NCBI GenBank assembly: GCA_012520575.1
Contig: JAAYOB010000015.1
Coordinates: 40,705-104,704, forward strand
DNA from: Candidatus Stramentimicrobium fermentans
GTDB lineage: Bacteria > Atribacterota > Phoenicimicrobiia > Phoenicimicrobiales > Stramentimicrobiaceae
Direction of reading: 5' to 3'
Length of the DNA: 64,000 bases
Position 1 is the first letter of the stretch, and the number at the start of each line of letters is the position of its first letter. The notes beneath the pieces are model-generated. The model was not told the origin of the DNA and searched no databases. It saw only the letters and a program-made list of their open reading frames with translations. Both the position numbers and the translations under genes were made by a program. Positions 2,427 through 42,871 of this stretch are shown here, in pieces.

Positions 2427-3438
2427 AGCTTACCTCCAATTTTTCCGCCGCAACTGCAACTGTTACACCATTTAGAGTAGTTTTATTTACGATTAATCTA
2501 TCAGCACCTATTAATGCGGCTCGTTCACATACATTGTCCACACCTGCAACACTTTGCACAAACTCAGAGGTTGTGAACTCTCCCGGAACTTCCTGAAGCT
2601 CTGCAGTGGAATAGAAGATGGGTATTAGCCCGTTATCCTTACAGTATTTCAAAAGGCCTTCTTCATCCGCTTTCAGGTCGATGGATGCTACACACTTGAC
2701 AGCTTTTATATCAATTTCGTATTGCGCCAATACCGTTTTTATTGCGTCACGGATGACATAGTCTGAAGCACCTTTTCTGCAGCCGATACCTACATGCAGA
2801 ATTTTAGGGATTAACTTCAATGTTTGCTCAAAAGGAGCCTTTTGACGGTAGGAAATACAAATCCCCAATTCCCCGCTATTGCCGCTTACAACGCCATTTG
2901 GAAGCTCCGTTTTAATGGCAAAGTCACAGAAAAGCGGGATATCTCTCTCCAGAATAGCAGCCGATATTATTTTTGCAAGATAAATATTATCGATTACAAA
3001 GTTGTTTCTGGCAGCCCAGGCATCCACGGAAAATCTGTTGTTGATGTCAGTGGCAGTTGTAATTACCGGAGTGGCCTTGAGCCGGTCAGCTATTCTTATT
3101 GCCATTTCATTCGCGCCGCCGATATGTCCGGAGAGCAGGGGAATCGCAAAATGCCCCAACTCATCGATACAGACAACGGCTGGGTCGGTCCGCTTGTCCC
3201 GCACATGAGGTGAGATCTCCCGAACGGCAATTCCACAGGAACCTATGAAAATTAATGCGTCAGCCCGGTTAAATAGTTTCTCATAGAAAGGCTTTGCAGG
3301 ATGGCAGATCGGATAAAATCCTTCCTCTGCAAACCTTTCCATCGTATAAGCTTTGAAATCGGCCTCCGGAAAGTATGACATTACCTTACGCGCAGTAGAG
3401 CAGCCCCGGCGGCTGTAAGCAAATATAGCTATCTTCAT
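2419..3438 (-). CDS. cbiG: Cobalamin biosynthesis protein CbiG
   Basis: Track ORF, 339 aa. Sits between cbiF and cbiH as in anaerobic cbi operons. Overlapping start and stop codons. Confidence 0.8.
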   Translation of the reverse strand: MKIAIFAYSRRGCSTARKVMSYFPEADFKAYTMERFAEEGFYPICHPAKPFYEKLFNRADALIFIGSCGIAVREISPHVRDKRTDPAVVCIDELGHFAIPLLSGHIGGANEMAIRIADRLKATPVITTATDINNRFSVDAWAARNNFVIDNIYLAKIISAAILERDIPLFCDFAIKTELPNGVVSGNSGELGICISYRQKAPFEQTLKLIPKILHVGIGCRKGASDYVIRDAIKTVLAQYEIDIKAVKCVASIDLKADEEGLLKYCKDNGLIPIFYSTAELQEVPGEFTTSEFVQSVAGVDNVCERAALIGADRLIVNKTTLNGVTVAVAAEKLEVSFG

Positions 3439-4190
3439 TCTGTGGCCTCTCGATATTCTGTTGTAAAGCTCGGGTGGTACAGTAAAGAACGCAGATACTG
3501 ATCACCCATACAGTTTCCTACAACGATTAAGGAAGTTTTGGTCAGTCCGTTTTTCGTTATCGTTTGGTGTAGAGTTTCAACTGTGCAGCGGAATATCTTT
3601 TCTTTCGGCCATGTAGCCTTGTAGACCACTGCTACAGGTGTATCTCCGGGATATCCACCTGCAAGCAAATCCTCCTGTAGCACCTCAGTCAGGGAGGTAC
3701 TGAGAAACAGCACCATTGTAGACTGGTGGGCTGCTAGTGCACGGATGGACTCACGTTCAGGAACCGGCGTCCGTCCTGCGGTTCGGGTGATGATGACTGT
3801 CTGGCTGACATCCGGCAGAGTGTACTCTGTTTTCAGAGATGCTGCCGCACCGCAGAAAGAACTGACACCCGGACAAACATCATATTCAATATTCAGCTTG
3901 AGCAGCTCATCAAACTGCTCCCGAACTGCGCCGTAAATACTAGGATCCCCGGTATGGAGGCGTACAGTTACTTTTCCAGCCTCTTCTGCCTTTTTGATTA
4001 CTTCAATTACCTGTTCCAGCGTCATCTTTGAGCTATCATGAATCTCACAGCCCTCTTTAGTATAAGAAAGTAAGTCGGGGTTTACCAGAGAACCTGCATA
4101 AATTACTACATCGGCCTCGCTTATAAGGCGAGCGCCTCTTACTGTTATTAAGTCAACAGCGCCACTGCCTGCACCGACAAAATGCACCAT
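3435..4190 (-). CDS. cbiF: Precorrin-4 C11-methyltransferase
   Basis: Track ORF. Motifs MVHFVGAGSGAVDLITVRGARLISEADVVIYAGSL and GDPSIYGA. Confidence 0.85.
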   Translation of the reverse strand: MVHFVGAGSGAVDLITVRGARLISEADVVIYAGSLVNPDLLSYTKEGCEIHDSSKMTLEQVIEVIKKAEEAGKVTVRLHTGDPSIYGAVREQFDELLKLNIEYDVCPGVSSFCGAAASLKTEYTLPDVSQTVIITRTAGRTPVPERESIRALAAHQSTMVLFLSTSLTEVLQEDLLAGGYPGDTPVAVVYKATWPKEKIFRCTVETLHQTITKNGLTKTSLIVVGNCMGDQYLRSLLYHPSFTTEYREATE

Positions 4191-4195
4191 ATACT

Positions 4196-5332
4196 TTATT
4201 CCTCCGTAATCAGTTTTAAAAGCGAGCGGGCATTCTTCGTTTCGCTCAGAAAACCATATTTTTTGGAAAAAATGATTGACCCTGTTTTTATTTCGCCTGC
4301 AACTCTATAATCCATAATAAAGGAGATTCGATTTGAGATTCGATGCAAAGTCTGTGTACAAAGATTATTTTCTTGCAAAATACGAATGGCATCATCACAG
4401 GTAGCGCAATCCAGTATTTCCTCAATGCACGAAGAAGAAAGTCCTGCTGCTCCGGCATGAGCAGCCATAATATCCATCCGGCAGTCACCATACTTGGAAT
4501 GTGTGTTTAGCATGCCGCCTGCGATTTTTACAAGTTTACCGATATGTCCGATGAGTAATGCACCCCGGAAACCCATCTCTCTACAAATATCCAACGCCTC
4601 TCCGATAAAATTAGAAGTGAGAACTGCTATTTTAGGATCGATGCCAATGCCATTTTTAATATAGTCCGAACCGTAATTACCGGGGGTTAACAGAACATAT
4701 TCCATATTGTTTGCTTTCCTCTGACGAAGTTCTAACCGTATCGTATCTATGAGAGCCTGTTCGCTCATAGGTTCCACGATTCCGGTCGTTCCCAAGATGG
4801 AAATACCGTCCACGATTCCAAGCCTTGGATTAAAAGTCTTTTTAGCGAGCCGCTCGCCATCCGGTACGGAAATTAAAACGGAAAGGCCGCCACGATAGTC
4901 AGTCAAACGGCATACCTCTTCGAGGTTTTCACGTATCATCTGCCGGGGAACAGAGTTAATGGCTGCTGCACCTACCGATTGATCCAAACCCTGCTTTGTC
5001 ACACGTCCAACACCTCTTCCGCCGTCAATGGTAATCCCCGGTGTTTTTGTACGAGTCACCTGTGCAAAAACAAGCGAACCTTTGGTTACATCCGGATCAT
5101 CTCCGCTGTCTTTTTTAATAGCGCATGACACGGTGTTTTCTTCCATCGAGATTTGCAGCACCTCCAAATCCAATGTGATACCTTTTGGCGTGCTGATCCG
5201 TATTTTCTCTTTCAACCTCCCGGTCAAAAGCATCCAGGCTGCAGCCTTTGATGCGGCGGCAGCGCAGGAGCCTGTCGTATAACCCAAGCGGAGCTTTTTC
5301 CCGTCTTTTACGATATATTCTTCCATAGACAT
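4196..5332 (-). CDS. cbiD: Cobalt-precorrin-5B C1-methyltransferase CbiD
   Basis: Track ORF, 378 aa. Motif LRLGYTTGSCAAAASKAA typical of CbiD. Confidence 0.85.
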   Translation of the reverse strand: MSMEEYIVKDGKKLRLGYTTGSCAAAASKAAAWMLLTGRLKEKIRISTPKGITLDLEVLQISMEENTVSCAIKKDSGDDPDVTKGSLVFAQVTRTKTPGITIDGGRGVGRVTKQGLDQSVGAAAINSVPRQMIRENLEEVCRLTDYRGGLSVLISVPDGERLAKKTFNPRLGIVDGISILGTTGIVEPMSEQALIDTIRLELRQRKANNMEYVLLTPGNYGSDYIKNGIGIDPKIAVLTSNFIGEALDICREMGFRGALLIGHIGKLVKIAGGMLNTHSKYGDCRMDIMAAHAGAAGLSSSCIEEILDCATCDDAIRILQENNLCTQTLHRISNRISFIMDYRVAGEIKTGSIIFSKKYGFLSETKNARSLLKLITEE

Positions 5333-5958
5333 TACCGTATAATCTGATATAGTAGCGCATTACAAATCGCCGCAGCCACATTACTGCCGCCTTTACGTCC
5401 TCTGGCAACAATGTAAGGGACCGTAGAGTTATTAATAATCAGTTCCTTACTCTCTACCACATTTACAAAGCCAACAGGAACACCGATAATCAGTGCCGGG
5501 TCAAGATTTCCTTCCTCTATCATGCCATGTAGAGTAATCAGGGCAGTAGGGGCGTTTCCAATGGCAAAAATGCAGGGTTTTGGCAGTTTAGCTGCACGCT
5601 CCATGGACACAATAGCCCGTGTGACATTGCGCTGTTTAGCCTCCTCTGCCACATCTGGGTCTGACATAAAGCAATGGACAGTGCCTCCCAGCTTTCCTAG
5701 AATCGTTTTGTTGATACCGGACTTTGCCATTTGAGTATCCGTAACAATATCACAACCACTACAAAGGGCCTCAATACCCTTTGCTACCGCATTATCGGAG
5801 AACACGAGATTGTCTGCATAGTCAAAATCAGCGGTAGCATGGATGGCTCTTTTAATAACAAGTTCATTTTTCGGATCGAGCTCCTTATCACCAAGAAACT
5901 CCGTAATGATTTCAAAGCTGCGTTTTTCAATGTCGGTAGGTTTGATATTTTCAATCAT
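5332..5958 (-). CDS. cbiC: Precorrin-8X methylmutase CbiC
   Basis: Track ORF, 208 aa. CbiC/CobH-like sequence and length. Confidence 0.85.
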   Translation of the reverse strand: MIENIKPTDIEKRSFEIITEFLGDKELDPKNELVIKRAIHATADFDYADNLVFSDNAVAKGIEALCSGCDIVTDTQMAKSGINKTILGKLGGTVHCFMSDPDVAEEAKQRNVTRAIVSMERAAKLPKPCIFAIGNAPTALITLHGMIEEGNLDPALIIGVPVGFVNVVESKELIINNSTVPYIVARGRKGGSNVAAAICNALLYQIIR

Positions 5959-7318
5959 GACGATATCTCTCCTTTAGACAAGCATTGTAGAAATTGACTG
6001 CAAAACCGGGATTAGAATAAAAATGGAAGCAAGGATATCCGGCATAGAGTTGCTGCGTTGCGTGTACACATTTCCAGCTTTTTCCGGATGCTTTCGAGGA
6101 CGTAAAGGAACTTCCGTGATTCTCACTGTCCCAATAGTGGAATTCATGTCCGGAAATTTCTTCTCCGGATTTGCATAGCATATTATCATGATTGGCTTTC
6201 AGGTGAACATATCCAAATCTGATTAACTTTCCGGCATCAAAGCTTTTTCCGGGCAAGAAGCCCACCATAGGAAATTCGCTGATCGATTCCGTCAGATACA
6301 TGAAGCCGCCACATTCCGCGATACAAGGAATACCCTGCTCGAGAGCCGTTTTGACGGAAGTGCGCATAGCATTATTTTCACTGAGCCTCTCAGCATGTAG
6401 CTCAGGATAACCGCCTCCGAGATATAGTCCCTGAATATCGGGAGGTAACTCCTGGTCTGACAAGGGGCTAAATGGAACCAATTCTGCACCCATTTCCCGC
6501 AATGCATCCAGACTATCCTCATAATAAAAGCAGAAAGCATTGTCACGAGCCACAGCAATGCGGACCGGCTCCTGCTGGCGGGGTAGTTTTATCGCTTCGC
6601 AAGAAATGGAGGAAGATGTTGTAGCCAGCGCCAGCAGGCCGTCAAGATTAATAGTTTCCTCCGCCTGTACTGACAGATTTTGCAGTTTTTCACGCAGGAC
6701 TTGTACTTCTGCCGCAGTGATAAGTCCCGGATGGCGGCTTTCCAAAGAACATTCTGGCATCACAGGTAAAAAGCCAAGAGGTTGAACCTTGCCTGTAAAG
6801 CGTGTTTGAATCTCTTTTTCAAGGACAGAATAAGTCGTGGCGGTGCATTGATTCAGAATGACACCACAAATCTGATGATCAGGGCAAAAGTTCAAGAATC
6901 CTTGAATAGTAGCCAAGATAGACAGCGACGCACCTTTAGCAGCGACAACCAGAACAACCGGACTTTGCGTGACCTGTGAAATTTCATATGTGCTTGCAGT
7001 AGTCGTCGTTAAACTCATGCCGTCATAGAAGCCCATTACCCCTTCAATCACACTGATGTCCCGGCCAGATCCGTTCTTTGCCAACAGATATTTCAGTGTG
7101 TTCTCTTGAAAGAAAAATAAGTCGAGATTGGAACTTTTTACTCCGATAACCCGGCTGTGGAACATCGGGTCAATATAATCAGGTCCGCATTTAAACGCAC
7201 CGACTTTCAATTTACGATTGACCAGTGCTTGTAGGATGGCACATGTAACCGTTGTTTTGCCGCAGCCACTGTTTGTCCCGGCCAGAACAACTCTGGGAAT
7301 TATGTATTCCATGCCCAC
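5951..7318 (-). CDS. cbiA: Cobyrinic acid a,c-diamide synthase
   Basis: Track ORF, 455 aa. N-terminal P-loop GTNSGCGKTT plus a C-terminal glutamine amidotransferase part. Confidence 0.85.
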   Translation of the reverse strand: MGMEYIIPRVVLAGTNSGCGKTTVTCAILQALVNRKLKVGAFKCGPDYIDPMFHSRVIGVKSSNLDLFFFQENTLKYLLAKNGSGRDISVIEGVMGFYDGMSLTTTTASTYEISQVTQSPVVLVVAAKGASLSILATIQGFLNFCPDHQICGVILNQCTATTYSVLEKEIQTRFTGKVQPLGFLPVMPECSLESRHPGLITAAEVQVLREKLQNLSVQAEETINLDGLLALATTSSSISCEAIKLPRQQEPVRIAVARDNAFCFYYEDSLDALREMGAELVPFSPLSDQELPPDIQGLYLGGGYPELHAERLSENNAMRTSVKTALEQGIPCIAECGGFMYLTESISEFPMVGFLPGKSFDAGKLIRFGYVHLKANHDNMLCKSGEEISGHEFHYWDSENHGSSFTSSKASGKSWKCVHATQQLYAGYPCFHFYSNPGFAVNFYNACLKERYRHD

Positions 7319-8433
7319 ACCTCCTGCCTATCTTTGCTCCGATAAATGGGAATATTCTTTTCTTCTGCCAGTCGGAGGAGTTTACGGTTTAGTTGATTCA
7401 GTGTCCCCACCGGAGTTCCCGCATCAATCACCGCTTCACACCGGAGCAGGAGGTCAGAGGCTTTCTGAAACTGCACATCTGTCATTGCTTCAAATGCCGG
7501 AGTCACCACGGCGTGATCGCTCAATTCCAAGGCGACCTGACAATCCACATCGTTTTCAAAAAGGATTCCTGTCGCAAAGGGGATTTCCTGCTTTTGTAAT
7601 GCTCTATAGCAAGCGATACCATAACCGCCGCCGGCTACCACAAACACTTTTGGAGCGCCCTCCGGTTTTGTCAACTCAATACTTCCGAACAACAGATTAT
7701 ACGAGCCGTTGCGTAGTTCATAAAGATGTTCAATGGTGTGGTTTCCCAGAATAACATCCGGTGGACCAAAAGCCTCAATCGTATTACCTTTCACGCAGAG
7801 AAGATAATCGGAGATCTTTATAGCAAGGTCGATCTCATGCAAAGACATAATGACGGTGATATTCTTTTTTTGTGCCATCTCCCGAAGAATGTTCAGTAGT
7901 TCAATTTTGTGGCGAATATCTAAATAGGCAGTAGGTTCATCCAGGACAATTATCTCAGGCTCTTGACAAATTGCTCTTGCCAACATGATCCGCTGGCGCT
8001 GTCCATCTGAAAGGGTAGTAAAATACTGCCCTGCCAGATCAAGCGCGTGGACACGTTCCAACGCTTCCCGCACGACATCCATATCTTTTGGTGTCAGTTT
8101 GCCGAATAAGTTTGTATACGGATAGCGTCCCATAGCCACAACCTCTGCGCAGGTCATCAACTCAGGGCGAATTCGGTCAGTTAAAACGACTGCTACCTCT
8201 TTTGCCATATCTTTGGGCGACCAGGAGGAGATTTCCTGCGCATTGATATAGACTGTTCCTCGAATCGTCTCCAACTGGCGGGTAATAGATTTAAGGATCG
8301 TAGACTTGCCTGCCCCGTTTGGCCCAATTAATGTGAGGATTTTTCCTTTTTCCAGTTGCACATTGATATCGTAGATCAAAATCTTTCCATTATAGCCAAC
8401 CGCCAGATTTTCGGTTTTAAAGTAGTATTCCAT
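7300..8433 (-). CDS. ABC transporter ATP-binding protein (FecE/BtuD family) with an unexplained C-terminal extension of about 115 aa
   Basis: Walker A GPNGAGKST, signature LSDGQRQR, Walker B IIVLDEP. The protein is 377 aa against about 260 aa for the family. The tail KVFVVAGGGYGIACYRALQ... looks like a small Rossmann-like domain. Confidence 0.8.
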   Translation of the reverse strand: MEYYFKTENLAVGYNGKILIYDINVQLEKGKILTLIGPNGAGKSTILKSITRQLETIRGTVYINAQEISSWSPKDMAKEVAVVLTDRIRPELMTCAEVVAMGRYPYTNLFGKLTPKDMDVVREALERVHALDLAGQYFTTLSDGQRQRIMLARAICQEPEIIVLDEPTAYLDIRHKIELLNILREMAQKKNITVIMSLHEIDLAIKISDYLLCVKGNTIEAFGPPDVILGNHTIEHLYELRNGSYNLLFGSIELTKPEGAPKVFVVAGGGYGIACYRALQKQEIPFATGILFENDVDCQVALELSDHAVVTPAFEAMTDVQFQKASDLLLRCEAVIDAGTPVGTLNQLNRKLLRLAEEKNIPIYRSKDRQEVWAWNT

Positions 8434-8434: not shown

Positions 8435-9565
8435 TCAATCCTCTTGCGTCCAACGGCGCTTTGCCATCATATAAATAACAACAGGCGCACCGAAAACGGA
8501 AGTGACGGTGCCAATTGCCAGTTCAGTGGGCGCAAAAACGGTTCTTGCAATCAAATCACAGAATACACAAAATACCGCACCGCAAAGAAAGGTAGACGGT
8601 ATTACAAAGGCCGGCTTCGATGATTTCAACAGTGTCCGGGTAATATGGGGAACTGCGATACCGACAAAGGAAATAGGGCCGGCAAGAGCCGTCACACACG
8701 CAGACAGCAGACTGGAGAGCAGTATCAGCAAAACACGGAACGGTTTGATGCGCATGCCCATACTTTGGGCATAACCTTCACCCAACGCATATGCAGATAT
8801 AGGTTTGGAGAGTAAGAGTGCCGCCACAATTCCCGGTATACACATCAGCACAGCAGTACTTACATTATCCCAACTGGCCCCGGAGAATGTACCCATAGAC
8901 CAGTTTTTCAAATTAACTACATCATGGTCATCCGCAAAAGTAATGCAAAAATCGGTCACCGCACTGCAAATGTAGCCAACCATGATACCGATCACCAACA
9001 GCATCGAGACATTCCGCACCTTCTGAGAGAATAGCAGAACGATAGAAGTAATCAGTAAGGAGCCCAGAAATGCAGCCAAAATCAGTGCAAGAGAGCCAAC
9101 GCTGCCAATATAATGGATCAGAAAAATCAGCGTAATACCCACGACCATCTTTGCACCGGAAGAAATACCCAGGACAAAGGGGCCTGCGATGGGATTACGG
9201 AAGAACACCTGAAGAAGATAGCCGGACACGGATAGTGCGCCACCTAAGATTGCGGCAAGTAGCATGCGCGGAATGCGAATACTGAACAGGATTTGGCTTT
9301 TGGTAGAGTTCTTAATAACAGCTTCCAGTTCCTGTGCATATCCGCCATTGGTAAACGCATTGGCAATCCCATACCGGATACCCTCCCAAAGCATGCGGAA
9401 TACATCCTGCACCGCAATAGAAACGGAGCCGATATTGACATTTATAATCAATGCCAGAATCAGCAGGCCGCTTAACAGGAGCATGATAAAAGAAAAACGG
9501 CCAATATTGCCGAGCCTGATTTTTTCTTTATTCATAGAGGGTGTACTATTCTTGTTTATTTTCAT
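8435..9565 (-). CDS. FecCD-family ABC permease (corrinoid/iron-complex importer)
   Basis: 376-aa polytopic membrane protein with BtuC/FepD-like sequence. Confidence 0.8.
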   Translation of the reverse strand: MKINKNSTPSMNKEKIRLGNIGRFSFIMLLLSGLLILALIINVNIGSVSIAVQDVFRMLWEGIRYGIANAFTNGGYAQELEAVIKNSTKSQILFSIRIPRMLLAAILGGALSVSGYLLQVFFRNPIAGPFVLGISSGAKMVVGITLIFLIHYIGSVGSLALILAAFLGSLLITSIVLLFSQKVRNVSMLLVIGIMVGYICSAVTDFCITFADDHDVVNLKNWSMGTFSGASWDNVSTAVLMCIPGIVAALLLSKPISAYALGEGYAQSMGMRIKPFRVLLILLSSLLSACVTALAGPISFVGIAVPHITRTLLKSSKPAFVIPSTFLCGAVFCVFCDLIARTVFAPTELAIGTVTSVFGAPVVIYMMAKRRWTQED

Positions 9566-9666: not shown

Positions 9667-10809
9667 TCACTGTAACCGATAAAGGTAGGGCAATTCATCC
9701 AACTCATCTACTTCACCGGAGAAAATCTTCCGGAAGCTTTCAATCATCTGACCAAGTCTCATGGTTTCCTGATGCATATTTTTACTCATGCACCAGGCGT
9801 TACCGTTTTGGACGGCCTTGAATTCTGCCAGGAGCTTATTCTTTGCTAACAATTCATCAATGGTTCTGATTTCCCCGCCAATGGTGCTGTTGTAGATAAT
9901 ATAATCTGCATCTTTTGCCGTGGCAAAAAACTTTTCCATTTCAATTGGCACGGTCGAGGTTCTGGTTTCGGGATCACCAAGGTTATCGAACACATAGCTG
10001 CCGCCAGCCAGTTCCAGCATTTTTGTTACATAGTCGCCATTTTTTCTGGCAACAACGTAATTGGAAGAGCTGATATGGAAAAATGCAACCGTTTTACCGG
10101 AACTTTCTGCACTCATTTCTTTATTCAGATAATCGACCTGCTCTGCAAACAGGGCGTTTGCGGTTTCTTCTTCATTCAGCAGGGCACCATACAGCTTAAT
10201 CCATTCCGTGCGTCCAAGGGGGTGCGGCTCCATACTGGACTGGTCAACAAGCACTGCAATACCCAACTCTTCCAGTTTTTCCTTTACTTCGGAGGCACGT
10301 CCGATCATTAGAGATTCAATTGCCAGAGGGCAACCATAATCTAGCAACATCTCATAGTCCGGCTCGCTGTACTTTCCGGCATATAAGATTTTACCTTCCT
10401 GCATTGCCAGTCGGGCATTTTCAATATGCCAGCCGTCTTCACGGGTTCCGGACAGTCTGATGACATCTAATCGCTCCAGAGCATCAAACAGGCACATAGA
10501 GGCGGTTGCTGCCAGATAAATATTCTCCAAAGGCTGATATAGAGGGACGATATCTTTAGCAACCCCTTTGGGTAGCTCAGAGCCATCCGGTATCACCAGG
10601 AATCTGCTCCCATCTGCCAGAGAAATCAACTTATAACCACCCGTGTAATAATCTACGGAAAACTGTGTGGCAAACTGCAGCTCCATACTGCACTCTGGCT
10701 CCCAACCGTTCCCCGGACCTTCTTTCGTTTCAGTTGTTTTGCAACCACAGAGAACCGAGAGTAGCAAGACTACCGTTAAGCAAAATACAATGCAGCGCCT
10801 CATACTCAT
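9667..10809 (-). CDS. Periplasmic/lipoprotein substrate-binding protein of an ABC importer (BtuF/FhuD class)
   Basis: Signal peptide with lipobox (LSVLCGC). Cluster-A SBP fold-like sequence. Adjacent to permease and ATPase genes. Confidence 0.75.
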   Translation of the reverse strand: MSMRRCIVFCLTVVLLLSVLCGCKTTETKEGPGNGWEPECSMELQFATQFSVDYYTGGYKLISLADGSRFLVIPDGSELPKGVAKDIVPLYQPLENIYLAATASMCLFDALERLDVIRLSGTREDGWHIENARLAMQEGKILYAGKYSEPDYEMLLDYGCPLAIESLMIGRASEVKEKLEELGIAVLVDQSSMEPHPLGRTEWIKLYGALLNEEETANALFAEQVDYLNKEMSAESSGKTVAFFHISSSNYVVARKNGDYVTKMLELAGGSYVFDNLGDPETRTSTVPIEMEKFFATAKDADYIIYNSTIGGEIRTIDELLAKNKLLAEFKAVQNGNAWCMSKNMHQETMRLGQMIESFRKIFSGEVDELDELPYLYRLQ

Positions 10810-11198
10810 TCTCCTTTGATTGCAGAACTATTAAAGTGCAGTGTGTATTCTATCAGATGAGGTTCGCTCATTGCAATGGTAGAAGCACTGACCGCCATAT
10901 CTTTATCTAAGACAACAGGAATTTCAAAAGTTGAGTTGCCCTCAGTCCGGATGGGATTATACTGAACACCGTCAACAAGCATGTATTCATAATAGGGGCT
11001 GCTCCACACAATCGTTGCGGTAATCATTTCGCCTTTCACCATGATTTTTGCAGGAGACTCAACGCTTGCCCGGCCGGAACCGCCGGACAAAGTTACTTCA
11101 ATTTTATAATTTCCGTCTGTTAACTCTTTTTCGCTGCAGGCAATAAAAAGGGTACAAATGAGTAAACAGGAAAGCAGGATTGCGATCGTTCGTGTCAT
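10806..11198 (-). CDS. Small lipoprotein of unknown function; candidate surface tetrapyrrole/corrinoid-binding domain
   Basis: Signal peptide plus lipobox (LFIACS). Its domain of about 100 aa is paralogous to the next gene. Lies inside the B12-riboswitch operon. Confidence 0.5.
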   Translation of the reverse strand: MTRTIAILLSCLLICTLFIACSEKELTDGNYKIEVTLSGGSGRASVESPAKIMVKGEMITATIVWSSPYYEYMLVDGVQYNPIRTEGNSTFEIPVVLDKDMAVSASTIAMSEPHLIEYTLHFNSSAIKGE

Positions 11199-11202
11199 AG
11201 GC

Positions 11203-11766
11203 TTACCTCACAATCAGTGCGTCAGCAGGAAGATCATCCGACTGGAAAATGAGTGTGCGGTCATACCACTTTTTCTTTCTAATACTCCATGCGGCACAGT
11301 CCAATTCCATATCAAGTGCTTCGACGGGAACCGTAAAGGTTTTAGCCCCTTCTTCGTTCAGAACAAAAGGAATATAGTTTTCCTCAGTATCAAGTAAAGC
11401 TTCTTTACCGGTACCCATATATACCATACCATAGCCGCTGCCGCTCATAGTCATAATGGCTTTCATTGCATTATTTTCTACGATTAATTCACACTTGATT
11501 ACGCGGAACATAGATGAGCTGGAATCTAAGGTGATTAGGTATGATCCATCCTTTAAACTGCTTGCGTAAATGGGTTTCAGAATATCATCCTCTGTAACCG
11601 TTGTGAAAGTATCATTCGATATCACAGAGTTCTCTGTGTTCTCAGAAACATTGGCTTGAGGCACAGGTTCCACGGTATTGTTGTCTACGGGCTCTTTATT
11701 TATTGTGTAACCTGATAAGACTGTTACCAAACAAAAGAACAGCACGAAAATCAGCGTTTTTTTCAT
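11203..11766 (-). CDS. Secreted protein, paralog of the 10806-11198 product, with an N-terminal low-complexity linker
   Basis: Signal peptide. The C-terminal domain aligns with the neighbour: LKDGSYLITL...MKAIMTMSGSGYGMVYMGTG...KTFTVPVEALDMEL matches LTDGNYKIEV...MITATIVWSSPYYEYMLVDG...STFEIPVVLDKDMAV. Confidence 0.5.
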   Translation of the reverse strand: MKKTLIFVLFFCLVTVLSGYTINKEPVDNNTVEPVPQANVSENTENSVISNDTFTTVTEDDILKPIYASSLKDGSYLITLDSSSSMFRVIKCELIVENNAMKAIMTMSGSGYGMVYMGTGKEALLDTEENYIPFVLNEEGAKTFTVPVEALDMELDCAAWSIRKKKWYDRTLIFQSDDLPADALIVR

Positions 11767-11851
11767 ATGGAGTACCTGCTTTCTAAACTGCTTTTATGTA
11801 TATACGAATATACATAAAAGCAGTTTCATCATGTTGGTTTGCAAGAAATAC

Positions 11852-12724
11852 CTATTTAGCAATTGCTTCAGCAGTGTGTGTAACAATCATCTGCTGAATG
11901 CCTTTGTACTGGCCCAAACCGTTCAGAACACATTCGACCTCATAACCGGCCTTGGCAAATACATCCTTCCACGATCCTTCCTCATCACCGGCCATATCGT
12001 TATTAGCGTGATCACCGGCAACAATCATCAGGGGGAGCAGAACGACCTTGTCGTAATTACCGGCATCGACCTTTGTTAGAACTTCATCCACCAGAGGAGT
12101 ACCCTCAACAGTGCCGACAAAGTAGTTAACCAGACCGGCGGCATGCAGATGTTTCTCGATTCTGGTGTAACTCTCATTGGCCTCATGATGAGTACCATGA
12201 CCCATAAAGACAACAGCAGTTTTCTCGGTGTTGTAAGCAGCAGTCTCTTCCTTCAGGACCTCGACCAGAGTGCCATAGTCCTTATCGGAAGTCAGCAGGG
12301 GAGTACCGACCTGCATGCTGTCGAATTTTTCAGTATAGCCGGAGATATCCTTCAGCAGGTCGTCATATTCGAAGCCGGGAATGACATGGGTGGGCTGAAT
12401 GATTACTTTCTTAACGCCATCAGCGACCAGACGTTCCATAGCCTCCTCTACATTGTCGATCTTATGACCATCGCGCTCTTCCAGAATGTCGATGATAATC
12501 TGAGAGGTGAAAGCTCTGCGAACTTCGTATTCGGGGTACGCCGTCTGCAGGGCAGCCTCAATTGCATCGATGGTTACCTCGCGGGTCTCGTTGTAGCTGG
12601 TGCCAAAGCTGACAGCAAGGATAACAGGCTTCTGTTCAGCGCTTCCCTGAGCGCCAAATGCTGCCAATCCCAGAACCAGGCATAATGCCGGCATTAGATA
12701 AGTAATTTTTTTTGTGAGTCTCAT
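11852..12724 (-). CDS. cbiK: Sirohydrochlorin cobaltochelatase CbiK homolog with an N-terminal Sec signal peptide (periplasmic CbiK type)
   Basis: Signal peptide MRLTKKITYLMPALCLVLGLAAFGAQG, followed by the CbiK start KPVILAVSFGTSYNETRE. First gene downstream of the riboswitch. Confidence 0.75.
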   Translation of the reverse strand: MRLTKKITYLMPALCLVLGLAAFGAQGSAEQKPVILAVSFGTSYNETREVTIDAIEAALQTAYPEYEVRRAFTSQIIIDILEERDGHKIDNVEEAMERLVADGVKKVIIQPTHVIPGFEYDDLLKDISGYTEKFDSMQVGTPLLTSDKDYGTLVEVLKEETAAYNTEKTAVVFMGHGTHHEANESYTRIEKHLHAAGLVNYFVGTVEGTPLVDEVLTKVDAGNYDKVVLLPLMIVAGDHANNDMAGDEEGSWKDVFAKAGYEVECVLNGLGQYKGIQQMIVTHTAEAIAK

Positions 12725-12821
12725 TTGAAATTTCCTCCATTTTTTTATTGATAATATATTTTATGGTATACATCACGAAAAACAATTGACAATTAGAGAG
12801 AACAATGCAAGAAGTTTTGCT

Positions 12822-13090
12822 CTATAAAACAAAAAACTGCGGCAGTCGCAAAACTGCCGCAGCCGATTTCCTGCAAAGTAAGATGTTTATTTCTCCATAA
12901 ATCGAGAACAAATAGACAGCAAACACGTTTAAGCAGGTCTCCTGACTCGCGTATCATAAGCTCTCCGCACTGTCTTCTCAGGATTGCTCCCAATGACTGA
13001 CTTTCGTCGCGTGCGGTGCCTCCACGCATACAGTGGCGGTACCGTCCCGGATTTTAACCGGGTTCACTATTCTCCACCAATTCCTGTCAA
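12822..13090 (-). promoter_or_regulatory. Cobalamin (AdoCbl) riboswitch with an intrinsic-terminator expression platform
   Basis: Minus-strand RNA carries GTGAACCCGGTTAAAATCCGGGACGGTACCGCCACTGT, then GGGAGCAATCC, then a B12 box GAGTCAGGAGACCTGC. A terminator hairpin CTGCGGCAGTTTTGCGACTGCCGCAG plus a T-run follows (plus-strand 12822-12862). Confidence 0.85.
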
Positions 13091-13133
13091 AATTGGTGAC
13101 ACTTAAACGGTGTATTCTATTCAACTGTCATTT

Positions 13134-13162
13134 ATAATAACACTGAGAACTTATCCTGTCAA
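13134..13162 (-). promoter_or_regulatory. Sigma-70-type promoter for the riboswitch-cbiK-btu-cbi operon
   Basis: Minus strand reads TTGACA, a 17-nt spacer, then TATTAT, about 40 nt upstream of the riboswitch 5' end. Confidence 0.5.
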
Positions 13163-13508: not shown

Positions 13509-13527
13509 AAAAAAAATAAATATCGAA

Positions 13528-13775
13528 TATTAAATTTTACAGATCACGGAAGCTGTTGAGAATACAGCACAGCCCCGCTACTGTGATAAGGGACTGATTG
13601 GACATAGGCCACTGAAGCAATTCGGGAAGGCGTCATAATCGGGATGATCTTTAAGTCAGGAGACGGTCTATAAAATTCAAAATGGCTTACTTCGAGGGAG
13701 GTAGGTGCTTTTTTTTGTGCGCTTTTAAAGCCTCTATCTAAAATACGAAGTATCGATAGAGGCTTTTTTATTATT
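13528..13775 (+). promoter_or_regulatory. Cobalamin riboswitch with terminator platform
   Basis: Motifs GTTGAGAATACAGCACAGCCCCGCTACTGT, GCCACTGAAGCAATTCGGGAAGG and the B12 box AAGTCAGGAGACGGTC. A terminator GCCTCTATC...GATAGAGGC plus a T-run lies just before the RBS AGGAGG of the 13793 gene. Confidence 0.8.
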
Positions 13776-13792
13776 TAAAGGAGGAGAAAATA

Positions 13793-14938
13793 ATGAAAAC
13801 TAAATTTTCAAAAACACTTTTAGTTCTGCTGTCTATTTTTTTGTTGATGGTGCTGACAGCTCCTTGCAGTTCAAATAATACCGACAAGACAGGTGAAGAA
13901 GTCGTTGCCAATGAAAAAACCCCAGAACCCTCACAATCAACCAGAGAGATTACTGATGCACAGGGGAATACATTGACCGTAGCTAAAAATATTGGAAAAA
14001 TAGCGGTTGACCAATGGGGTACGGCCGATATTGTTGTGTCCGTATTAGGCGAAGAGGCTATGGATAAAATCGTAGCGGTTGGGATAACCAAAAGTTACAA
14101 CCAGATTAAAGGCATATATGGCAAATCATACCCGCAAATAAACAACCTGCCGTCAATTGGCGGTGGCAGAAGTAGTCCAATAGATGCAGAAAAAATCATA
14201 TCGCTCCAACCTGATTTATATATGATTGCTAATTATAGCGAAAACTCCGACGATTTAATTGGAAAACTTGCCAAAGCAAATATCCCCACCGTCATATTGA
14301 ATATCAGCGAAGAGCCTTCCCAATCTCCGCAAAACGCTATAAAAATAGTGGGAGAGCTTTTCGGTGTGCAAGAAAGAGCTGACGAAATAGCAGGATTTAT
14401 AGATTCACAATATAAGTTGATTGAGAGTAAAAACCTTGAAGATAAGAGAAACAAGCCTACCGTATACATGGAAAAAGGTTCGGGCACTAAGGACGAGTAT
14501 GACGTAACCTGGTCAGATCAAAGTGCCTGGGGCAAAATTGTAACGAAAACTGGCGGAAAAAATATAGTAGATAGTTCACTGGGAAATAGCGTTAAGATAG
14601 ATTCCGAGTTTTTGTTATCCGGCAATCCCGACTATATCATAATTGCCGGCAGTGTTGGAATAGGGACTGATTTGGAAGAAGGCCAAGAACTCATCAGATC
14701 ATATACACAAAGAACGGGTTGGCAAAATCTGGATGCTGTGAAAAATAACAATATCTTTCTCATCGGTCATGGTCAAGAGAGAGATCAGTTCTGCTTTTTC
14801 CCGCACTTAGTCATGGCAAAAACCTTTTATCCTGAGGATTTTGTGGATATTGAACCTTTAGAAATATTGAAAGAATTTTACGACAAATATATGTTGTTAG
14901 ATTTTGAAGACGGACATTGGTATATCAAATTAGAATAG
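13793..14938 (+). CDS. ABC importer substrate-binding lipoprotein (corrinoid/iron-complex class), paralog of 17527-18612
   Basis: Signal peptide with lipobox (LTAPCSS). FhuD/BtuF-like. RBS AGGAGG. Confidence 0.75.
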   Translation: MKTKFSKTLLVLLSIFLLMVLTAPCSSNNTDKTGEEVVANEKTPEPSQSTREITDAQGNTLTVAKNIGKIAVDQWGTADIVVSVLGEEAMDKIVAVGITKSYNQIKGIYGKSYPQINNLPSIGGGRSSPIDAEKIISLQPDLYMIANYSENSDDLIGKLAKANIPTVILNISEEPSQSPQNAIKIVGELFGVQERADEIAGFIDSQYKLIESKNLEDKRNKPTVYMEKGSGTKDEYDVTWSDQSAWGKIVTKTGGKNIVDSSLGNSVKIDSEFLLSGNPDYIIIAGSVGIGTDLEEGQELIRSYTQRTGWQNLDAVKNNNIFLIGHGQERDQFCFFPHLVMAKTFYPEDFVDIEPLEILKEFYDKYMLLDFEDGHWYIKLE

Positions 14939-14952
14939 AAGGATAGCCTGTC

Positions 14953-15993
14953 ATGCAACTATCTCCGGGCAAAGCCCTGTATAGTAATATTGTCAGCAAG
15001 AAAAAATACATAATTGTTTTCTTAATCATCGCAATTGTTATATCTTTTATTGTCAATCTATTTGTTGGCAGCGCCGGTTTAACTCTAGTAGAAACGATCA
15101 ATGCTATTTTCGGTGATTCTAGTAAAATCAACCGTGTCATCGTTTGGAGCATTCGTATGCCTGTCGCGATATCTGCCATTTTAGTAGGGGCTGCTCTTGG
15201 AATAGGTGGCTGTGAAATGCAAACCATATTGAATAATCCCATGGCAAGTCCCTACACCCTGGGTATTTCATCAGCAGCATCTTTCGGAGCTGCCCTAGTC
15301 ATCATATTAAGAATCAGTATATCCCCGTTTTTTGATAATATCTTAATCAGTTTATCCGCATTTTGCTTTTCTATACTGGCTTCCTTTTCTATTTTTACAC
15401 TATCAAAGCGATTTGGTTGGGATCGGGGTGTACTGATATTGTTCGGTATTGCGATGAGTTTTTTGTTTAATGCCCTGACTACCTTTTTGCAATTTATCGC
15501 TGACCAAAACGATTTGCAATCATTTATATTTTGGTCATTTGGAGATTTAACCAAGATCAATTGGACGCAAATTCTAATCTTGTTTATTGTTTTAATCGTC
15601 ATTTATACTCTATTTTTCAAAAAATCCTGGCACCTTACGGCTGTTACTCTTGGCGATTCTGCAGCTTTAAGCTTGGGCATAGATGTTAAAAAAATGAGAC
15701 GAACCGTTATCATTATGGTCGCAATACTTTCTGCTACATCGGTCAGTTTTGCCGGAACAATAGGTTTTGTAGGAATCGTTGCCCCGCATATCGCACGCAT
15801 GATCGGCGGAGAAGATCAGAGGTTCTTGTTGTCTATTTCCGCATTGGTGGGCGCATTGATGCTGTCTGTAGCATCTACCTTCGGCAAAACTTTAGTTCCG
15901 GGGGTTATTCTGCCGATCGGACTCGTAACTTCCATGGTAGGGATTCCATTTTTCATTTATTTGATATTACAGCATAGAGGTGGCATGAAATGA
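14953..15993 (+). CDS. FecCD-family ABC permease
   Basis: 346-aa membrane protein with BtuC/FepD-like sequence. Confidence 0.8.
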   Translation: MQLSPGKALYSNIVSKKKYIIVFLIIAIVISFIVNLFVGSAGLTLVETINAIFGDSSKINRVIVWSIRMPVAISAILVGAALGIGGCEMQTILNNPMASPYTLGISSAASFGAALVIILRISISPFFDNILISLSAFCFSILASFSIFTLSKRFGWDRGVLILFGIAMSFLFNALTTFLQFIADQNDLQSFIFWSFGDLTKINWTQILILFIVLIVIYTLFFKKSWHLTAVTLGDSAALSLGIDVKKMRRTVIIMVAILSATSVSFAGTIGFVGIVAPHIARMIGGEDQRFLLSISALVGALMLSVASTFGKTLVPGVILPIGLVTSMVGIPFFIYLILQHRGGMK

Positions 15994-16781
15994 TACGCAC
16001 TGAAAATCTCGTATTTGGTTACCATAAGCATGTACCCGTACTCAAAGAATTATCTGTCGATTTTGACGCTGATCTCAATGTAATAATAGGGCCTAATGCC
16101 TGCGGAAAGTCAACACTGCTCAAATGCCTATTCGGAATACTTAATTACGAGGGAAAAGTGTTTTGGAACAATCAGGACTTGTCCAAATTGGATTTTGAGG
16201 AAAAAGCTCAACTGATGGCGTATCTTCCTCAAGGAGATGTAGAAAATACATCACTCACAATCTTTGAAACTGTACTGTTGGGCAAAGTCGCTTCCCTGTC
16301 TTGGAAAGTAACCGATGATCAACTTGATGAGGTTTATAATGTCCTGAATACCATGAATTTACTCCCTATTTACGACAAAAAGATCAATGAACTTTCCGGA
16401 GGTCAGAAAAAGCTGGTAACCATAGCCCAAACTCTGATCAGAGAGCCGGAGCTGATTATTATGGACGAACCGACCAATAATCTGGATATTCAAAAACAAC
16501 TTGAACTTTTCGATATCATCAGACAAATCATCAAACACAAAAAAATCAAATTCATTATCGTATTGCACGACATCAATGTTTCCACAAGATACGCGGACAA
16601 AATCATCGTCCTAAACGACGGTAAAAAATATGCTTGCGGACAACCTGAGGAAATCATCAATGTCGCTATGCTTAAAGATGTATACGGGGTACACGGCAAA
16701 TTGGTTAAAGACCAAAATGATACAACCTTTGTCGTAGCAGAATCATCAGTAAATGAAATCAATTTATTTGGAAAGGAGTAA
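15990..16781 (+). CDS. ABC transporter ATP-binding protein (FecE/BtuD family)
   Basis: Walker A GPNACGKST, signature LSGGQKK, Walker B IIMDEP. Confidence 0.85.
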   Translation: MIRTENLVFGYHKHVPVLKELSVDFDADLNVIIGPNACGKSTLLKCLFGILNYEGKVFWNNQDLSKLDFEEKAQLMAYLPQGDVENTSLTIFETVLLGKVASLSWKVTDDQLDEVYNVLNTMNLLPIYDKKINELSGGQKKLVTIAQTLIREPELIIMDEPTNNLDIQKQLELFDIIRQIIKHKKIKFIIVLHDINVSTRYADKIIVLNDGKKYACGQPEEIINVAMLKDVYGVHGKLVKDQNDTTFVVAESSVNEINLFGKE

Positions 16782-16784
16782 GCA

Positions 16785-17530
16785 ATGTCTCGTGTCTATA
16801 TCATTGCGGGCGGTCCGGGAGACCCGGAGCTTATTACGTTAAAAGCAAAAAAATAATCGATACCTCGGATTATATTTTTACGAGCGAACGATTTATCAAT
16901 AAAAAAATGTTTGTAGATACGAAAAGCAGTTGTCGGATATTAGATACTTTTACGTATACGTACGATGAAAAATTGGATTATACGAAAAAAGCAGTAGCGG
17001 AAAATAAAATCCTGTCTTTTATCACTATGGGAGATCCTGCTTTATATGGCATGGTAGGTGGACTTATTGACAGATTTGAAAAGAACGATATTGCTTTCGA
17101 GATTATACCGGGCGTGAATGCCGCTATTGCATCATCCGCAGTTCTTAAACGCGGGTTAACAGGTATGGGGGTAACAAATACTTTCGTATGCACCAGCTAT
17201 AACAATCATGACAAATCAAGAAAAAACCTAGAAAAAATAGCGGCTCTGGGTTGTACTGTATCGGTATTTATGGGGATAGATAATCTGAAAGAAATTATAG
17301 ACATTTTTGCAGCATATAGAAGTAAACAGACACCCATAGCCATTGTATCTAATGCTACCTGGCACAATGAAAAAATAATCCATGGTAATCTTGGCAATAT
17401 TATGGACATATTTAATCACGACAAAGTGGAAGGGGGGTTGATTTTAATTGGAGATTTTTTAAATAAAGAATACGATTATGATTTGGAAAGACAGTTTATA
17501 GAAATGAAGAAAAAAGAGGTGAAAAAATGA
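16785..17530 (+). pseudogene. Tetrapyrrole (corrin/porphyrin) methylase, CbiF/CobM-like, with a disrupted N-terminal region (frameshifts)
   Basis: The ATG at 16785 gives MSRVY. The conserved motif YIAGGPGDPELITLKAKK lies in a second frame and ends at a TAA inside an A7 run (16846-16852). The sequence continues as IIDTSDYIFT... in another frame into the track ORF 16907-17530 (GDPALYGMVGG, PGVNAA). My nucleotide reading places that ORF's ATG at 16906, which disagrees with the track by 1 nt, so the number and position of frameshifts are uncertain. Confidence 0.55.
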
Positions 17531-18612
17531 AGAACACAAAAAGATTAATTACAGTAGTATTGGCAATGATGATTATTTTTACCATGAGTGCTTGCGCCGG
17601 CGAGCCTGGCAAAACGGAACCGACTGAACGTACATTTGTAGATGCCGCCGGGAGGGAAGTCACAATCAAACAACCGATAGAAACATTTGTTATCAATAAC
17701 TATGACCTTGGGGAATCGCTGGCTATGGTTTTAGGTGATGAATACGCAGACATGGTTACAGGTACAGGGATTCCTAACTATGAAATCAATAAAGAAGTAT
17801 ACGAAAAACATTTTCCGCAATTAAAAAATATTAAGAGTCTAGCCGGTGGGCGGGGTCCTTATGACTTGGAGGCGCTATTTAAATTAGAGCCCGATGTTTT
17901 TTTTATGAATTCATCTGAACATTTCAGACAATCACGCGGAGAGGAAATGGATAAAGTCGAACAGGCAGGCATCCCCGTCTATCTATTTTTTATGTATCAA
18001 GACGCTATACAATCACCTAGAGACACTATCAGACTAGTGGGCGAAGTTTTCGGTAGAGAAGAAAGAGCAAAAGAGGTAACAGATTTCATTGATGCTCAGT
18101 TCAATTTGGTTGAAGAAAGGTTGGCCAATATAGATGAGCCGGTAACATTTTATTATGAAAGAGATAACGGCATGACCTCAGCAAAAGGAGGCTGGACTCA
18201 AATATTAAACCAGGCAGGCGGCCAGTGGATTGCTGAAGATATCATGATTGAAAACTCGGGCAAATTAGACCCGGAAACAGTTCTCGTATCAAATCCTGAT
18301 TTTATTGTACTATCCGGAGGACTCGGCTATAAATCCTCCGGCAATCCTCATACGGTACAGGATCATGTTGATAAAGTGATATCAAGACCGGGCTGGAAAG
18401 ACCTGGACGCCATAAAAAACAAAAGACTATTTGTTTTTGCCCACGATTTTTCACGGTCACCGCTTTCATTTTATCCGGTCCTGTACATGGCTAAAGAGTT
18501 CTATCCGGAGCGAATGGCAGATGTCGACCCGGATGCAATAATGAAAGAGTTCTATGACAAATTTATGATCGTAGATTATGAAGATGGTACTTGGTCCTAC
18601 AGATTAGAATAG
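17527..18612 (+). CDS. Second substrate-binding lipoprotein of the same ABC importer
   Basis: Signal peptide with lipobox (MSACAG). The C-terminus FYPERMADVDPDAIMKEFYDKFMIVDYEDGTWSYRLE parallels the 13793 product. Its start overlaps the previous stop. Confidence 0.75.
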   Translation: MKNTKRLITVVLAMMIIFTMSACAGEPGKTEPTERTFVDAAGREVTIKQPIETFVINNYDLGESLAMVLGDEYADMVTGTGIPNYEINKEVYEKHFPQLKNIKSLAGGRGPYDLEALFKLEPDVFFMNSSEHFRQSRGEEMDKVEQAGIPVYLFFMYQDAIQSPRDTIRLVGEVFGREERAKEVTDFIDAQFNLVEERLANIDEPVTFYYERDNGMTSAKGGWTQILNQAGGQWIAEDIMIENSGKLDPETVLVSNPDFIVLSGGLGYKSSGNPHTVQDHVDKVISRPGWKDLDAIKNKRLFVFAHDFSRSPLSFYPVLYMAKEFYPERMADVDPDAIMKEFYDKFMIVDYEDGTWSYRLE

Positions 18613-26156: not shown

Positions 26157-26204
26157 AATAATTTTTCTCCTTCCTTTATTGGAAAAACCTCATTTATAAA
26201 ATAA

Positions 26205-26402
26205 AGAACACACCCTTTGACCACGAAAGAGTGTAACGGGTTCCCAACAGGCAGGTCTCCTGGCTTGAGGCTGTCTAATTGCTGCGCCTTCCCAAAACTT
26301 TTGTTCCAGTGGCGTTATGCAGCTTTCGGTACCTTTTACAGTAACGGGCTTGCGGTGGATTTGCACCACACTTCCCTTAACCTGTCAGGATAATATATTC
26401 AG
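26205..26402 (-). promoter_or_regulatory. Cobalamin riboswitch with terminator platform
   Basis: Minus-strand RNA carries GGTGCAAATCCACCGCAAGCCCGTTACTGT, then GCCACTGG, GGGAAGGCGC and a perfect B12 box AGCCAGGAGACCTGCC. The terminator is ACACTCTTTcgtggtcAAAGGGTGT plus a U-run. Confidence 0.85.
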
Positions 26403-42865: not shown

Positions 42866-42871
42866 TTTGCT

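Follow-up and report, generated by a model that had tools for sequence, protein, structure and literature searches.

A cobalamin riboswitch-controlled operon linking an exported CbiK homologue and two NEAT-fold proteins to an ABC importer: a probable Isd-like relay for cobalt-tetrapyrrole uptake

The Isd-type relays (IsdB/H, IsdA, IsdC and IsdE-IsdF, together with Bacillus anthracis IsdX1, Listeria Hbp2 and Streptococcus Shp-HtsABC) are the haem systems nearest to the locus analyzed here, and the association of an exported CbiK with an ATP-binding cassette (ABC) importer is already known from two diderm phyla. The CbiKP protein of Desulfovibrio vulgaris, presumably the product of a gene in the Desulfovibrio B12-controlled operon, is an exported CbiK that keeps its catalytic residues. 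It was crystallised and described as a periplasmic cobaltochelatase (PDB 2xvx), and a single Desulfovibrio B12 element was reported by Rodionov et al. to control cbiK-cbiL and btuCDF (PMC545781). The ihtABCDE genes of Porphyromonas gingivalis encode a surface lipoprotein homologous to CbiK (IhtB/FetB; PDB 9b86) along with a substrate-binding protein (SBP), a permease, and an ATPase, and in Bacteroides riboswitch-controlled accessory surface lipoproteins (BtuG, BtuH, and BtuJ/K/L) feed a corrinoid importer, a setting in which the relay concept was already proposed. The Bacteroides proteins were the only characterised surface B12-capture proteins in the literature that we searched. Here, we describe an operon located in a stretch of 64,000 nucleotides (referred to below as the window) of contig JAAYOB010000015.1 from Candidatus Stramentimicrobium fermentans, in which genes for an exported CbiK homologue, two small NEAT-fold proteins, and an ABC importer stand between a cobalamin riboswitch and a set of cbi genes, and which probably encodes a B12-repressed, Isd-like extracytoplasmic importer that takes up a cobalt-tetrapyrrole for B12 supply.

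The region 10806-13090, which drew attention to the locus in an original prediction made from the DNA letters, is the head of a long minus-strand operon with the order riboswitch, terminator, CbiK, 187-aa (amino acid) protein, 130-aa protein, SBP, permease, ATPase, and cbiA-C-D-F-G-H-JET. The B12 riboswitch proposed to head this operon was confirmed by a full-length match of the aptamer (12915-13121, minus strand) to Rfam RF00174 with 93.4 bits (E 6.4e-22; gathering score, 31.5), and all elements of the operon are present on the minus strand. A putative sigma-70-like promoter (TTGACA-17 nt-TATTAT, TG-extended; 13134-13162, minus strand), called from its consensus match (11/12), immediately precedes the riboswitch. 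The stretch from the aptamer to the cbiK start codon contains an intrinsic-terminator-like hairpin with a U-run (12825-12864, minus strand) that has a 13-bp stem with 7 GC pairs, the hairpin proper spanning 12864-12835 and being followed by TTTTGTTTTA; as an expression platform placed behind the aptamer, this arrangement resembles an OFF switch that works by transcription termination.

The genes that follow on the same strand code for a CbiK-type class II chelatase of 290 aa (11852-12724), the 187-aa protein (11203-11766), the 130-aa protein (10806-11198), a substrate-binding lipoprotein of the Peripla_BP_2 class (9667-10809; PF01497, E 3e-28; lipobox LCGC), a FecCD/BtuC-type permease (8435-9565; PF01032, E 4e-80), and an ABC ATPase with a C-terminal MJ0874-type domain (7300-8433). 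They are continued by cbiA for cobyrinate a,c-diamide synthase (5951-7318; Pfam CbiA and GATase_3), which overlaps the ATPase gene by 19 nt, by cbiC, cbiD, cbiF, cbiG, and cbiH (1695-5958; Pfam CbiC, CbiD, TP_methylase, CbiG_N/C, and TP_methylase), and by the 5' part of a cbiJ-cbiE-cbiT fusion gene that is cut by the window end (1-1702). When the operon was read on in an identical contig from a biogas-fermenter metagenome (locus L001), the genes beyond the window edge were CbiJ-CbiE-CbiT, cbiB, cobD, cbiP, cobO, and a metalloenzyme-family gene. The same neighbors were seen in at least four independent assemblies, and therefore the arrangement is not an assembly artefact. The importer and the downstream cbi genes are thus as the original prediction described them, but its claim of a full cobalamin pathway in the operon did not hold, since the operon is devoid of cbiL, a signal-less cbiK, early tetrapyrrole genes, and the genes for nucleotide-loop assembly. 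As had been stated, neither a second cbiK nor a cbiL was found in the window, nor were they found in the 8 kb past its left end, and no cytoplasmic cbiK or cbiX was detected in the sequence flanking the window. The 85-nt spacer between cbiK and the next gene contains a perfect 19-bp hairpin without a U-run (11785-11826, minus strand; minimum free energy -26.4 kcal/mol, z -5.3 against shuffles), which may serve in stabilisation of the cbiK transcript, in attenuation, or in separate expression of cbiK from the downstream genes.

The first product of the operon is annotated in public sources as sirohydrochlorin cobaltochelatase, and it matches the Pfam CbiK family (PF06180) with 281.6 bits (E 7e-84; cutoff, 26.2) and the NCBIfam equivalog NF047852 with 254.4 bits, which is under the 400-bit cutoff of that model. 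Its best matches among solved structures are CbiK from Salmonella enterica (1qgo, 169.7 bits), FetB from P. gingivalis (9b86, 163.3 bits), and CbiKP from D. vulgaris (2xvx, 141.8 bits), and the equivalents of His145, Glu175, and His207 (S. enterica numbering) are retained in the aligned motifs GHG, VEG, and GDHA, as they are in the Blautia, Collinsella, and Anaerotruncus orthologues. The protein begins with MRLTKKITYLMPALCLVLGLAAFGAQGSAEQ, which contains three Lys/Arg residues, a hydrophobic core, and then GSA/EQ, so that a signal peptide of about residues 1-29 is predicted; no other transmembrane segment is present. Signal peptides were called here by simple rules and by comparison with orthologues, and this comparison bore out the Sec signal originally assigned to CbiK: lipoprotein signals (LAAC, LAGC, TGCS) of the Sec or Tat (twin-arginine) type are found at essentially every orthologous locus (more than 60 loci). 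The window protein reads LAAFG where a close relative (L006) reads LAACG, that is, the lipidated Cys is replaced by Phe while the signal is kept. In Collinsella the signal is of the twin-arginine lipoprotein type (SRRGFM...LAGCS), which implies that this CbiK would be exported folded and possibly loaded with ligand. By its location signals, the window CbiK does not appear to be a standard cytoplasmic pathway enzyme. Duplicated CbiK domains were also observed: locus L005 (7695-9398) encodes tandem complete CbiK domains in a single 567-aa lipoprotein, and two adjoining CbiK matches occur in L010 (7634-9349).

The 187-aa and 130-aa proteins, which we named NEAT-A and NEAT-B, respectively, both start with signal-type sequences; neither has a Pfam or NCBIfam match, and both are labeled hypothetical in public sources, the NCBI model of the 187-aa protein being shortened to 140 aa with its signal peptide removed. 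NEAT-A consists of the signal sequence, a disordered linker of about 40 residues, and a domain at about residues 65-180, and NEAT-B of a lipobox (FIAC/S) and one such domain. They had been described as two paralogous small lipoproteins, and the paralogy, which is weak in the pairwise comparison (BLASTP E 0.007 over 49 aa), is clear at the profile level (hhalign 96.5%, E 7.6e-10, 126 columns); the lipobox is kept in NEAT-B, but NEAT-A reads LSGY where an 82%-identical relative reads FSGC. Each protein has over 1100 homologues when these are clustered at 90%, and a profile search of 1.8 billion representatives returned 1527 clusters at E <= 0.001. The AlphaFold (AF2) models, with a domain pLDDT (predicted local distance difference test score) of about 90-98, matched only NEAT haem-binding domains, the best non-NEAT folds scoring 6.1 and 5.1 for the two models, and Foldseek concurred for the 187-aa protein. 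In both models the domain is predicted to be an eight-stranded immunoglobulin-like beta-sandwich of about 120 residues. The window proteins did not match Pfam NEAT (PF05031) at its gathering threshold of 32.8 bits, and PDB sequence searches gave marginal partial matches only; orthologous NEAT-B domains that are fused with NEAT-A score just below that threshold (32.2, 30.2, 29.3, and 26.0 bits). The models thus suggest that NEAT-A and NEAT-B are a divergent branch of the NEAT superfamily, so that of the "undescribed family" of the original prediction the lack of any family match stands and a new fold does not, and that they are, as was then supposed, candidate tetrapyrrole carriers.

The haem-ligand positions of NEAT domains were then compared. 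In a partial alignment of the lip that contacts the tetrapyrrole in NEAT domains, NEAT-A reads DSSSSMFRV against DESSRMNRY in IsdX1, and the lip of NEAT-B (GGSGRA) is, depending on the alignment, 2-6 residues shorter (...GGSGRAS-VESPA against ...SSRMNRYFESPA); the final Tyr of the lip motif S/Y-xxxx-Y in the 3-10 helix is missing in both proteins. The YxxxY motif of strand beta-8 with its axial Tyr is seemingly not retained either: in a low-confidence alignment, Y136/Y140 of IsdX1 correspond to H114/Y118 of NEAT-B (with Arg in place of His in the homologue P0256) and to K166/R170 of NEAT-A. The family also includes large proteins, such as P0257 (883 aa), which carries three NEAT-B repeats and one NEAT-A with linkers that are acidic or rich in proline and has a membrane anchor at its C terminus, P0259 (1328 aa), in which the family profile matched four stretches, and P0289 (675 aa), which is a NEAT-A~NEAT-B~SBP triple fusion. 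The multi-repeat giants (883-1328 aa, with long acidic linkers) are reminiscent of IsdH, Shr, and similar scavenging receptors.

A scan of a collection with one genome per species revealed the six-gene module, from CbiK to the ATPase, at a minimum of 571 loci in Clostridia (Oscillospirales, Christensenellales, Blautia and other Lachnospiraceae, Anaerotruncus, and Sedimentibacter-like genomes) and Coriobacteriia (Collinsella and Eggerthellaceae). At each of the 80 loci examined, SBP, permease, and ATPase came after NEAT-B, and CbiK preceded NEAT-B in every one of them whose contig extends far enough. When stop-to-stop open reading frames (ORFs) were inspected at 82 loci, fusions were found at each junction, i.e. 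CbiK~NEAT-A at 10 loci (one of them a CbiK~A~B triple), NEAT-A~NEAT-B at 26, and NEAT-B~SBP at 25, with all the genes separate, as in the window, at 11. Many of the 80 loci come from closely related Collinsella, and therefore these counts are not independent events. The domain order was never permuted, and this constitutes our strongest evidence for a chain of physical hand-off that would run from CbiK to NEAT-A, NEAT-B, and SBP. No haem-degrading enzyme, sortase, or Fur-type regulator was found to be conserved near the module.

The riboswitch is conserved as well. With a covariance model built from the three riboswitches of the window, complemented with Rfam for L012, whose riboswitch was missed by the three-sequence model (Rfam match, 40.3 bits), about 46 of the 48 Clostridia loci whose upstream sequence was long enough were found to have a cobalamin riboswitch a short distance before CbiK. 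Blautia, Ruminococcus, Anaerotruncus, and Limivicinus loci contain riboswitch-bearing modules that stand alone among unrelated genes, and since modules without cbi neighbors are still controlled by a riboswitch, B12 control belongs to the module and not to the cbi genes only. In two loci (L025, 477-7011; L041, 89-8160) the module is divided into two units that are each headed by a cobalamin riboswitch, one consisting of SBP, permease, and ATPase, and the other of CbiK and NEAT-B running straight into cbiA.

The importer genes of the window operon correspond to a class III SBP, a FecCD-type permease, and an ATPase under a cobalamin riboswitch, a setting shared with BtuFCD. The permease has BtuC as its best NCBIfam match (217.9 bits; cutoff, 334), and the ATPase matches the corrinoid ABC ATPase model PRK09536 over its full length with 211.9 bits, below the cutoff and equal to its FecE score. 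The 380-aa SBP, although it belongs to the Peripla_BP_2 class, differs from BtuF in that it has no NCBIfam equivalog, no BtuF model match, and no sequence relative in PDB, and thus both SBP and permease stay below the BtuFCD equivalog scores.

Taken together, these features are most readily accommodated by an extracytoplasmic relay. When adenosylcobalamin is low, the riboswitch would permit read-through of the terminator, and the exported CbiK-type protein would then bind the ligand in its tetrapyrrole cleft and pass it to NEAT-A, from there to NEAT-B, and finally to the substrate-binding lipoprotein, all four outer components bearing export or lipoprotein signals. The BtuC-like permease and the ATPase would carry the ligand into the cytoplasm, where it could be used by the co-transcribed Cbi enzymes and CobO. 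As for the ligand itself, an environmental corrinoid, either a cobamide or an incomplete form such as cobinamide or cobyrinate/cobyric acid, would fit the regulation and the BtuC/BtuD-like appearance of permease and ATPase; this fuller statement of the relay is a tentative one, to which we give somewhat less than an even chance. Corrinoids, including cobinamide, are plentiful in stool and digesters (PMC6461909), and a 2026 review calls extracellular cobamide capture in Gram-positive bacteria "entirely uncharacterized" (PMC13616437).

The module shares with the Isd systems the presence of several NEAT-fold surface proteins beside a class III SBP, a FecCD permease, and an ATPase, the multi-NEAT giants in the family, and the implied hand-to-hand transfer of a tetrapyrrole across the wall. 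In contrast to Isd, it is under a cobalamin riboswitch rather than Fur, its anchors are lipoboxes or signal peptides rather than LPXTG/sortase, it has no IsdG/I-type haem-degrading enzyme, its NEAT domains fall below the Pfam threshold and have apparently lost YxxxY, and its chain opens with a chelatase homologue. The parallel with Desulfovibrio drawn at the outset proved apt: both systems combine an exported CbiK, a FecCD-type importer, a cobalamin riboswitch, and, in some lineages of the module, a nearby cbiL, although the D. vulgaris protein is periplasmic in a diderm, NEAT-fold proteins are missing there, and a separate cytoplasmic CbiK is known. By having an exported CbiK with adjoining FecCD-type importer genes, the module falls in one class with CbiKP and Iht; unlike the module, the iht locus includes an outer-membrane TonB receptor and no NEAT proteins, it has been read as related to haem/iron or Mn-porphyrin, and no report of its control by a riboswitch was found in our literature search. 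The Bacteroides Btu lipoproteins, although comparable in their riboswitch control, have unrelated folds (beta-propeller, DUF4465, and others) and need an outer membrane, and the literature searched mentioned no chelatase homologue among the components of the btu operons. If the ligand is a corrinoid, the module could be, by analogy and as tentatively as that ligand is proposed, the Gram-positive counterpart of BtuG/H/J capture built of Isd-type parts. The class II chelatase, the NEAT fold, the class III SBP, the BtuCD-type importer, and the cobalamin riboswitch are known parts; what is new is the whole Gram-positive module, the divergent NEAT branch under B12 control, and the fusion series joining chelatase to importer. 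Our literature search found no description of the six-gene module, no NEAT protein linked with cobalamin, and no exported CbiK in Firmicutes.

Several observations weigh against a relay for scavenged corrinoid. To our knowledge, no corrin-binding NEAT domain has been described, and the NEAT pocket suits planar porphyrins. The His/Glu/His chelatase triad is present in every exported CbiK inspected, and mere binding would not need it. The module is tied to ring-synthesis genes, in some lineages directly to cbiL, and not to cbiZ or cobUST salvage, the SBP is unlike any BtuF model, and the window already holds a canonical riboswitch-controlled btuFCD (23416-26400). Moreover, the three-sequence model detected no riboswitch at any Coriobacteriia locus, and the Rfam match there was sub-threshold (14.6 bits) and corresponded to a short variant in Collinsella. 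This riboswitch-like element of 128 nt, which has no peripheral extension, was seen upstream in the Collinsella loci L046-L083 (e.g. L082, 8080-8461).

The chelatase triad raises the alternative that the surface CbiK is an enzyme loading Co2+ into a tetrapyrrole (sirohydrochlorin or a relative of it) that the cell itself exports or that neighbors shed, and that the NEAT proteins and the ABC importer bring in the chelate for entry at CbiL, in the manner of a tetrapyrrole-based "cobaltophore" or of early-precursor salvage. We consider this scheme somewhat less probable than the corrinoid reading and the strongest of its rivals. Besides the conserved triad, the window CbiK is equally close to the bona fide S. 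enterica enzyme and to the exported homologues, and surface FetB has Co/Mn chelatase activity on porphyrin in vitro, its deletion strongly lowering surface Mn-protoporphyrin IX (PMC13065792). NEAT domains are able to bind Co-, Zn-, and Ga-porphyrins (PDB 3qzp, which contains Co-protoporphyrin IX, 2k78, and 3qug), and the separate btuFCD of the window points in the same direction. With respect to gene context, corrin-ring genes lie downstream on the same strand or divergently upstream at about 60 of the 80 loci, and cbiL is adjacent in three lineages; it directly follows the ATPase gene in the L021 group and in the Coriobacteriaceae locus L040 (surface CbiK, NEAT-B, SBP, permease, ATPase, CbiL, cytoplasmic CbiK), and in Desulfovibrio it is under one B12 element with cbiK and btuCDF, as cited above. 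L040 is also the only one of the roughly 60 cbi-linked loci with a second, signal-less cbiK within 10 kb. No cbiMNQO-like family was conserved within 10 kb on either side in an ORF clustering of the 80 loci that is polluted by spurious antisense ORFs from high-GC genomes and was used for this point only, and cbiK-type delta-proteobacteria without known cobalt transporters have been reported (PMC545781). P. gingivalis is cited as having a cbi pathway and no precorrin-2 synthesis in PMC6461909, and tetrapyrrole-precursor salvagers are mostly Firmicutes according to Shelton et al. (PMC6461909).

Other data speak against insertion outside the cell. No extracellular source or exporter of sirohydrochlorin is known, L040 and D. 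vulgaris also possess a cytoplasmic CbiK, and the long-linker, multi-repeat receptors have the appearance of scavengers for an environmental ligand. A search with the cytoplasmic CbiK of L040 returned named matches, a minority of all matches, from Eggerthellaceae only, with no named Collinsella among them, and in Eggerthellaceae the cytoplasmic cbiK and cbiL belong to an early operon of their own that also contains hemA, C, D, B, and L. Since both genes are kept there, their absence from the late operon of the window is ordinary genome organisation and says little about the rest of the genome, and the notion that no cbiK in the operon means none in the genome was rejected, cbiK and cbiL normally being in a separate early hem operon. 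Two such Eggerthellaceae loci (L090, 7591-11892; L091, 7520-11956) read cbiL, ABC ATPase, ABC2_membrane (exporter type), cytoplasmic cbiK, a 350-370-aa protein without Pfam match, hemA/sirC, hemC, and cobA-hemD, with hemB and hemL added in L091; the exporter-type genes, which might serve a tetrapyrrole or cobalt, thus stand between cbiL and cbiK. The corresponding general claim, that the cobalt-insertion step of B12 synthesis takes place outside the cytoplasm and that the chelate is imported as the CbiL substrate with no need of a free-cobalt transporter, we consider rather unlikely. If true, it would explain the exported CbiKs of Desulfovibrio and Porphyromonas, the cbi pathway of P. gingivalis without precorrin-2 synthesis, and the lack of a recognised cobalt transporter near these clusters.

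That the module takes up haem, iron, or a metalloporphyrin in the Isd/Iht manner and is merely co-transcribed with B12 genes, CbiK being a haem binder or dechelatase, is improbable, because such a function suits the folds and not the regulation. The folds do point this way, since all solved NEAT relatives bind haem or haemoglobin and the three importer proteins (SBP, permease, ATPase) belong to the iron-chelate class; CbiKP of D. vulgaris reportedly binds haem, and IhtB/FetB of P. gingivalis does so too (PMC12094164). Nevertheless, cobalamin riboswitches also control the modules that stand alone, the module is not accompanied by a haem-degrading enzyme, a sortase, or a Fur-type regulator, the axial-Tyr motif is replaced in the low-confidence alignment by H/R-xxx-Y in NEAT-B and K-xxx-R in NEAT-A, and in P. 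gingivalis neither iron nor haem affects iht expression (PMC12094164). Finally, an ordinary cytoplasmic CbiK with a mis-called start or an irrelevant hydrophobic N terminus, with the small ORFs as fillers before a standard btuFCD, would agree with the public annotation, the plausible position of the gene for a pathway cbiK, and the weak pairwise similarity of the small ORFs, but it is very improbable, and both a mis-called start and a chance similarity were rejected, since export signals occur at essentially every orthologous locus (Tat-type in Collinsella), no alternative start codon exists past the CbiK signal peptide, and the small ORFs have numerous homologues, confident NEAT-fold models, and fusions to CbiK and SBP.

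The relay operon is not the only B12-controlled unit of the window. A second cobalamin riboswitch (90.8 bits), divergent from the first, heads a plus-strand unit (13523-18612) that contains an SBP, a permease, an ATPase, a TP_methylase-like protein (16784/16907-17530), and a second SBP. The TP_methylase-like protein shows a degenerate N-terminal S-adenosylmethionine-binding loop (GRSGRPG) and is probably, judging from its sequence, a non-catalytic homologue. A third riboswitch (100.8 bits) precedes the canonical-looking btuFCD on the minus strand, whose SBP reaches 124 of the 234 bits required by the BtuF model, and a cobO/btuR adenosyltransferase gene (26568-27083, plus strand) is divergent from it; three B12-controlled FecCD-type importers are therefore contained within 26 kb. 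With respect to the host, the GC content of the relay operon is 44-49% versus 38-41% elsewhere in the window, and two OEP/TolC-family genes with HlyD and MacB-like partners are located at 57628-63151. At NCBI, the identical proteins carry the label "Candidatus Atribacteria bacterium." The window operon could be a Clostridia-type operon that moved into a diderm host, where two of its lipoproteins turned into soluble periplasmic proteins. A tRNA-Sec gene (73.3 bits) followed by ORFs that resemble, by eye, selA, selB, and selD was also noted (41154-45829), which suggests that selenocysteine is used by the host.

Among the anaerobes that abound in the gut and in digesters are Oscillospiraceae, Lachnospiraceae, Christensenellaceae, and Collinsella, and cobamide production is predicted for many Firmicutes, yet we know of no mechanism for the capture of corrinoids or cobalt at the surface of monoderm bacteria. 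The module described here provides a concrete and widespread candidate for that role, with four small soluble proteins, and, if this function is confirmed, it would contain the first NEAT-fold domain known to us that carries a cargo other than haem or a porphyrin analogue. In addition, by placing an exported CbiK under B12 control, it supplies a physiological setting for the long-unexplained exported CbiKs of Desulfovibrio and Porphyromonas.

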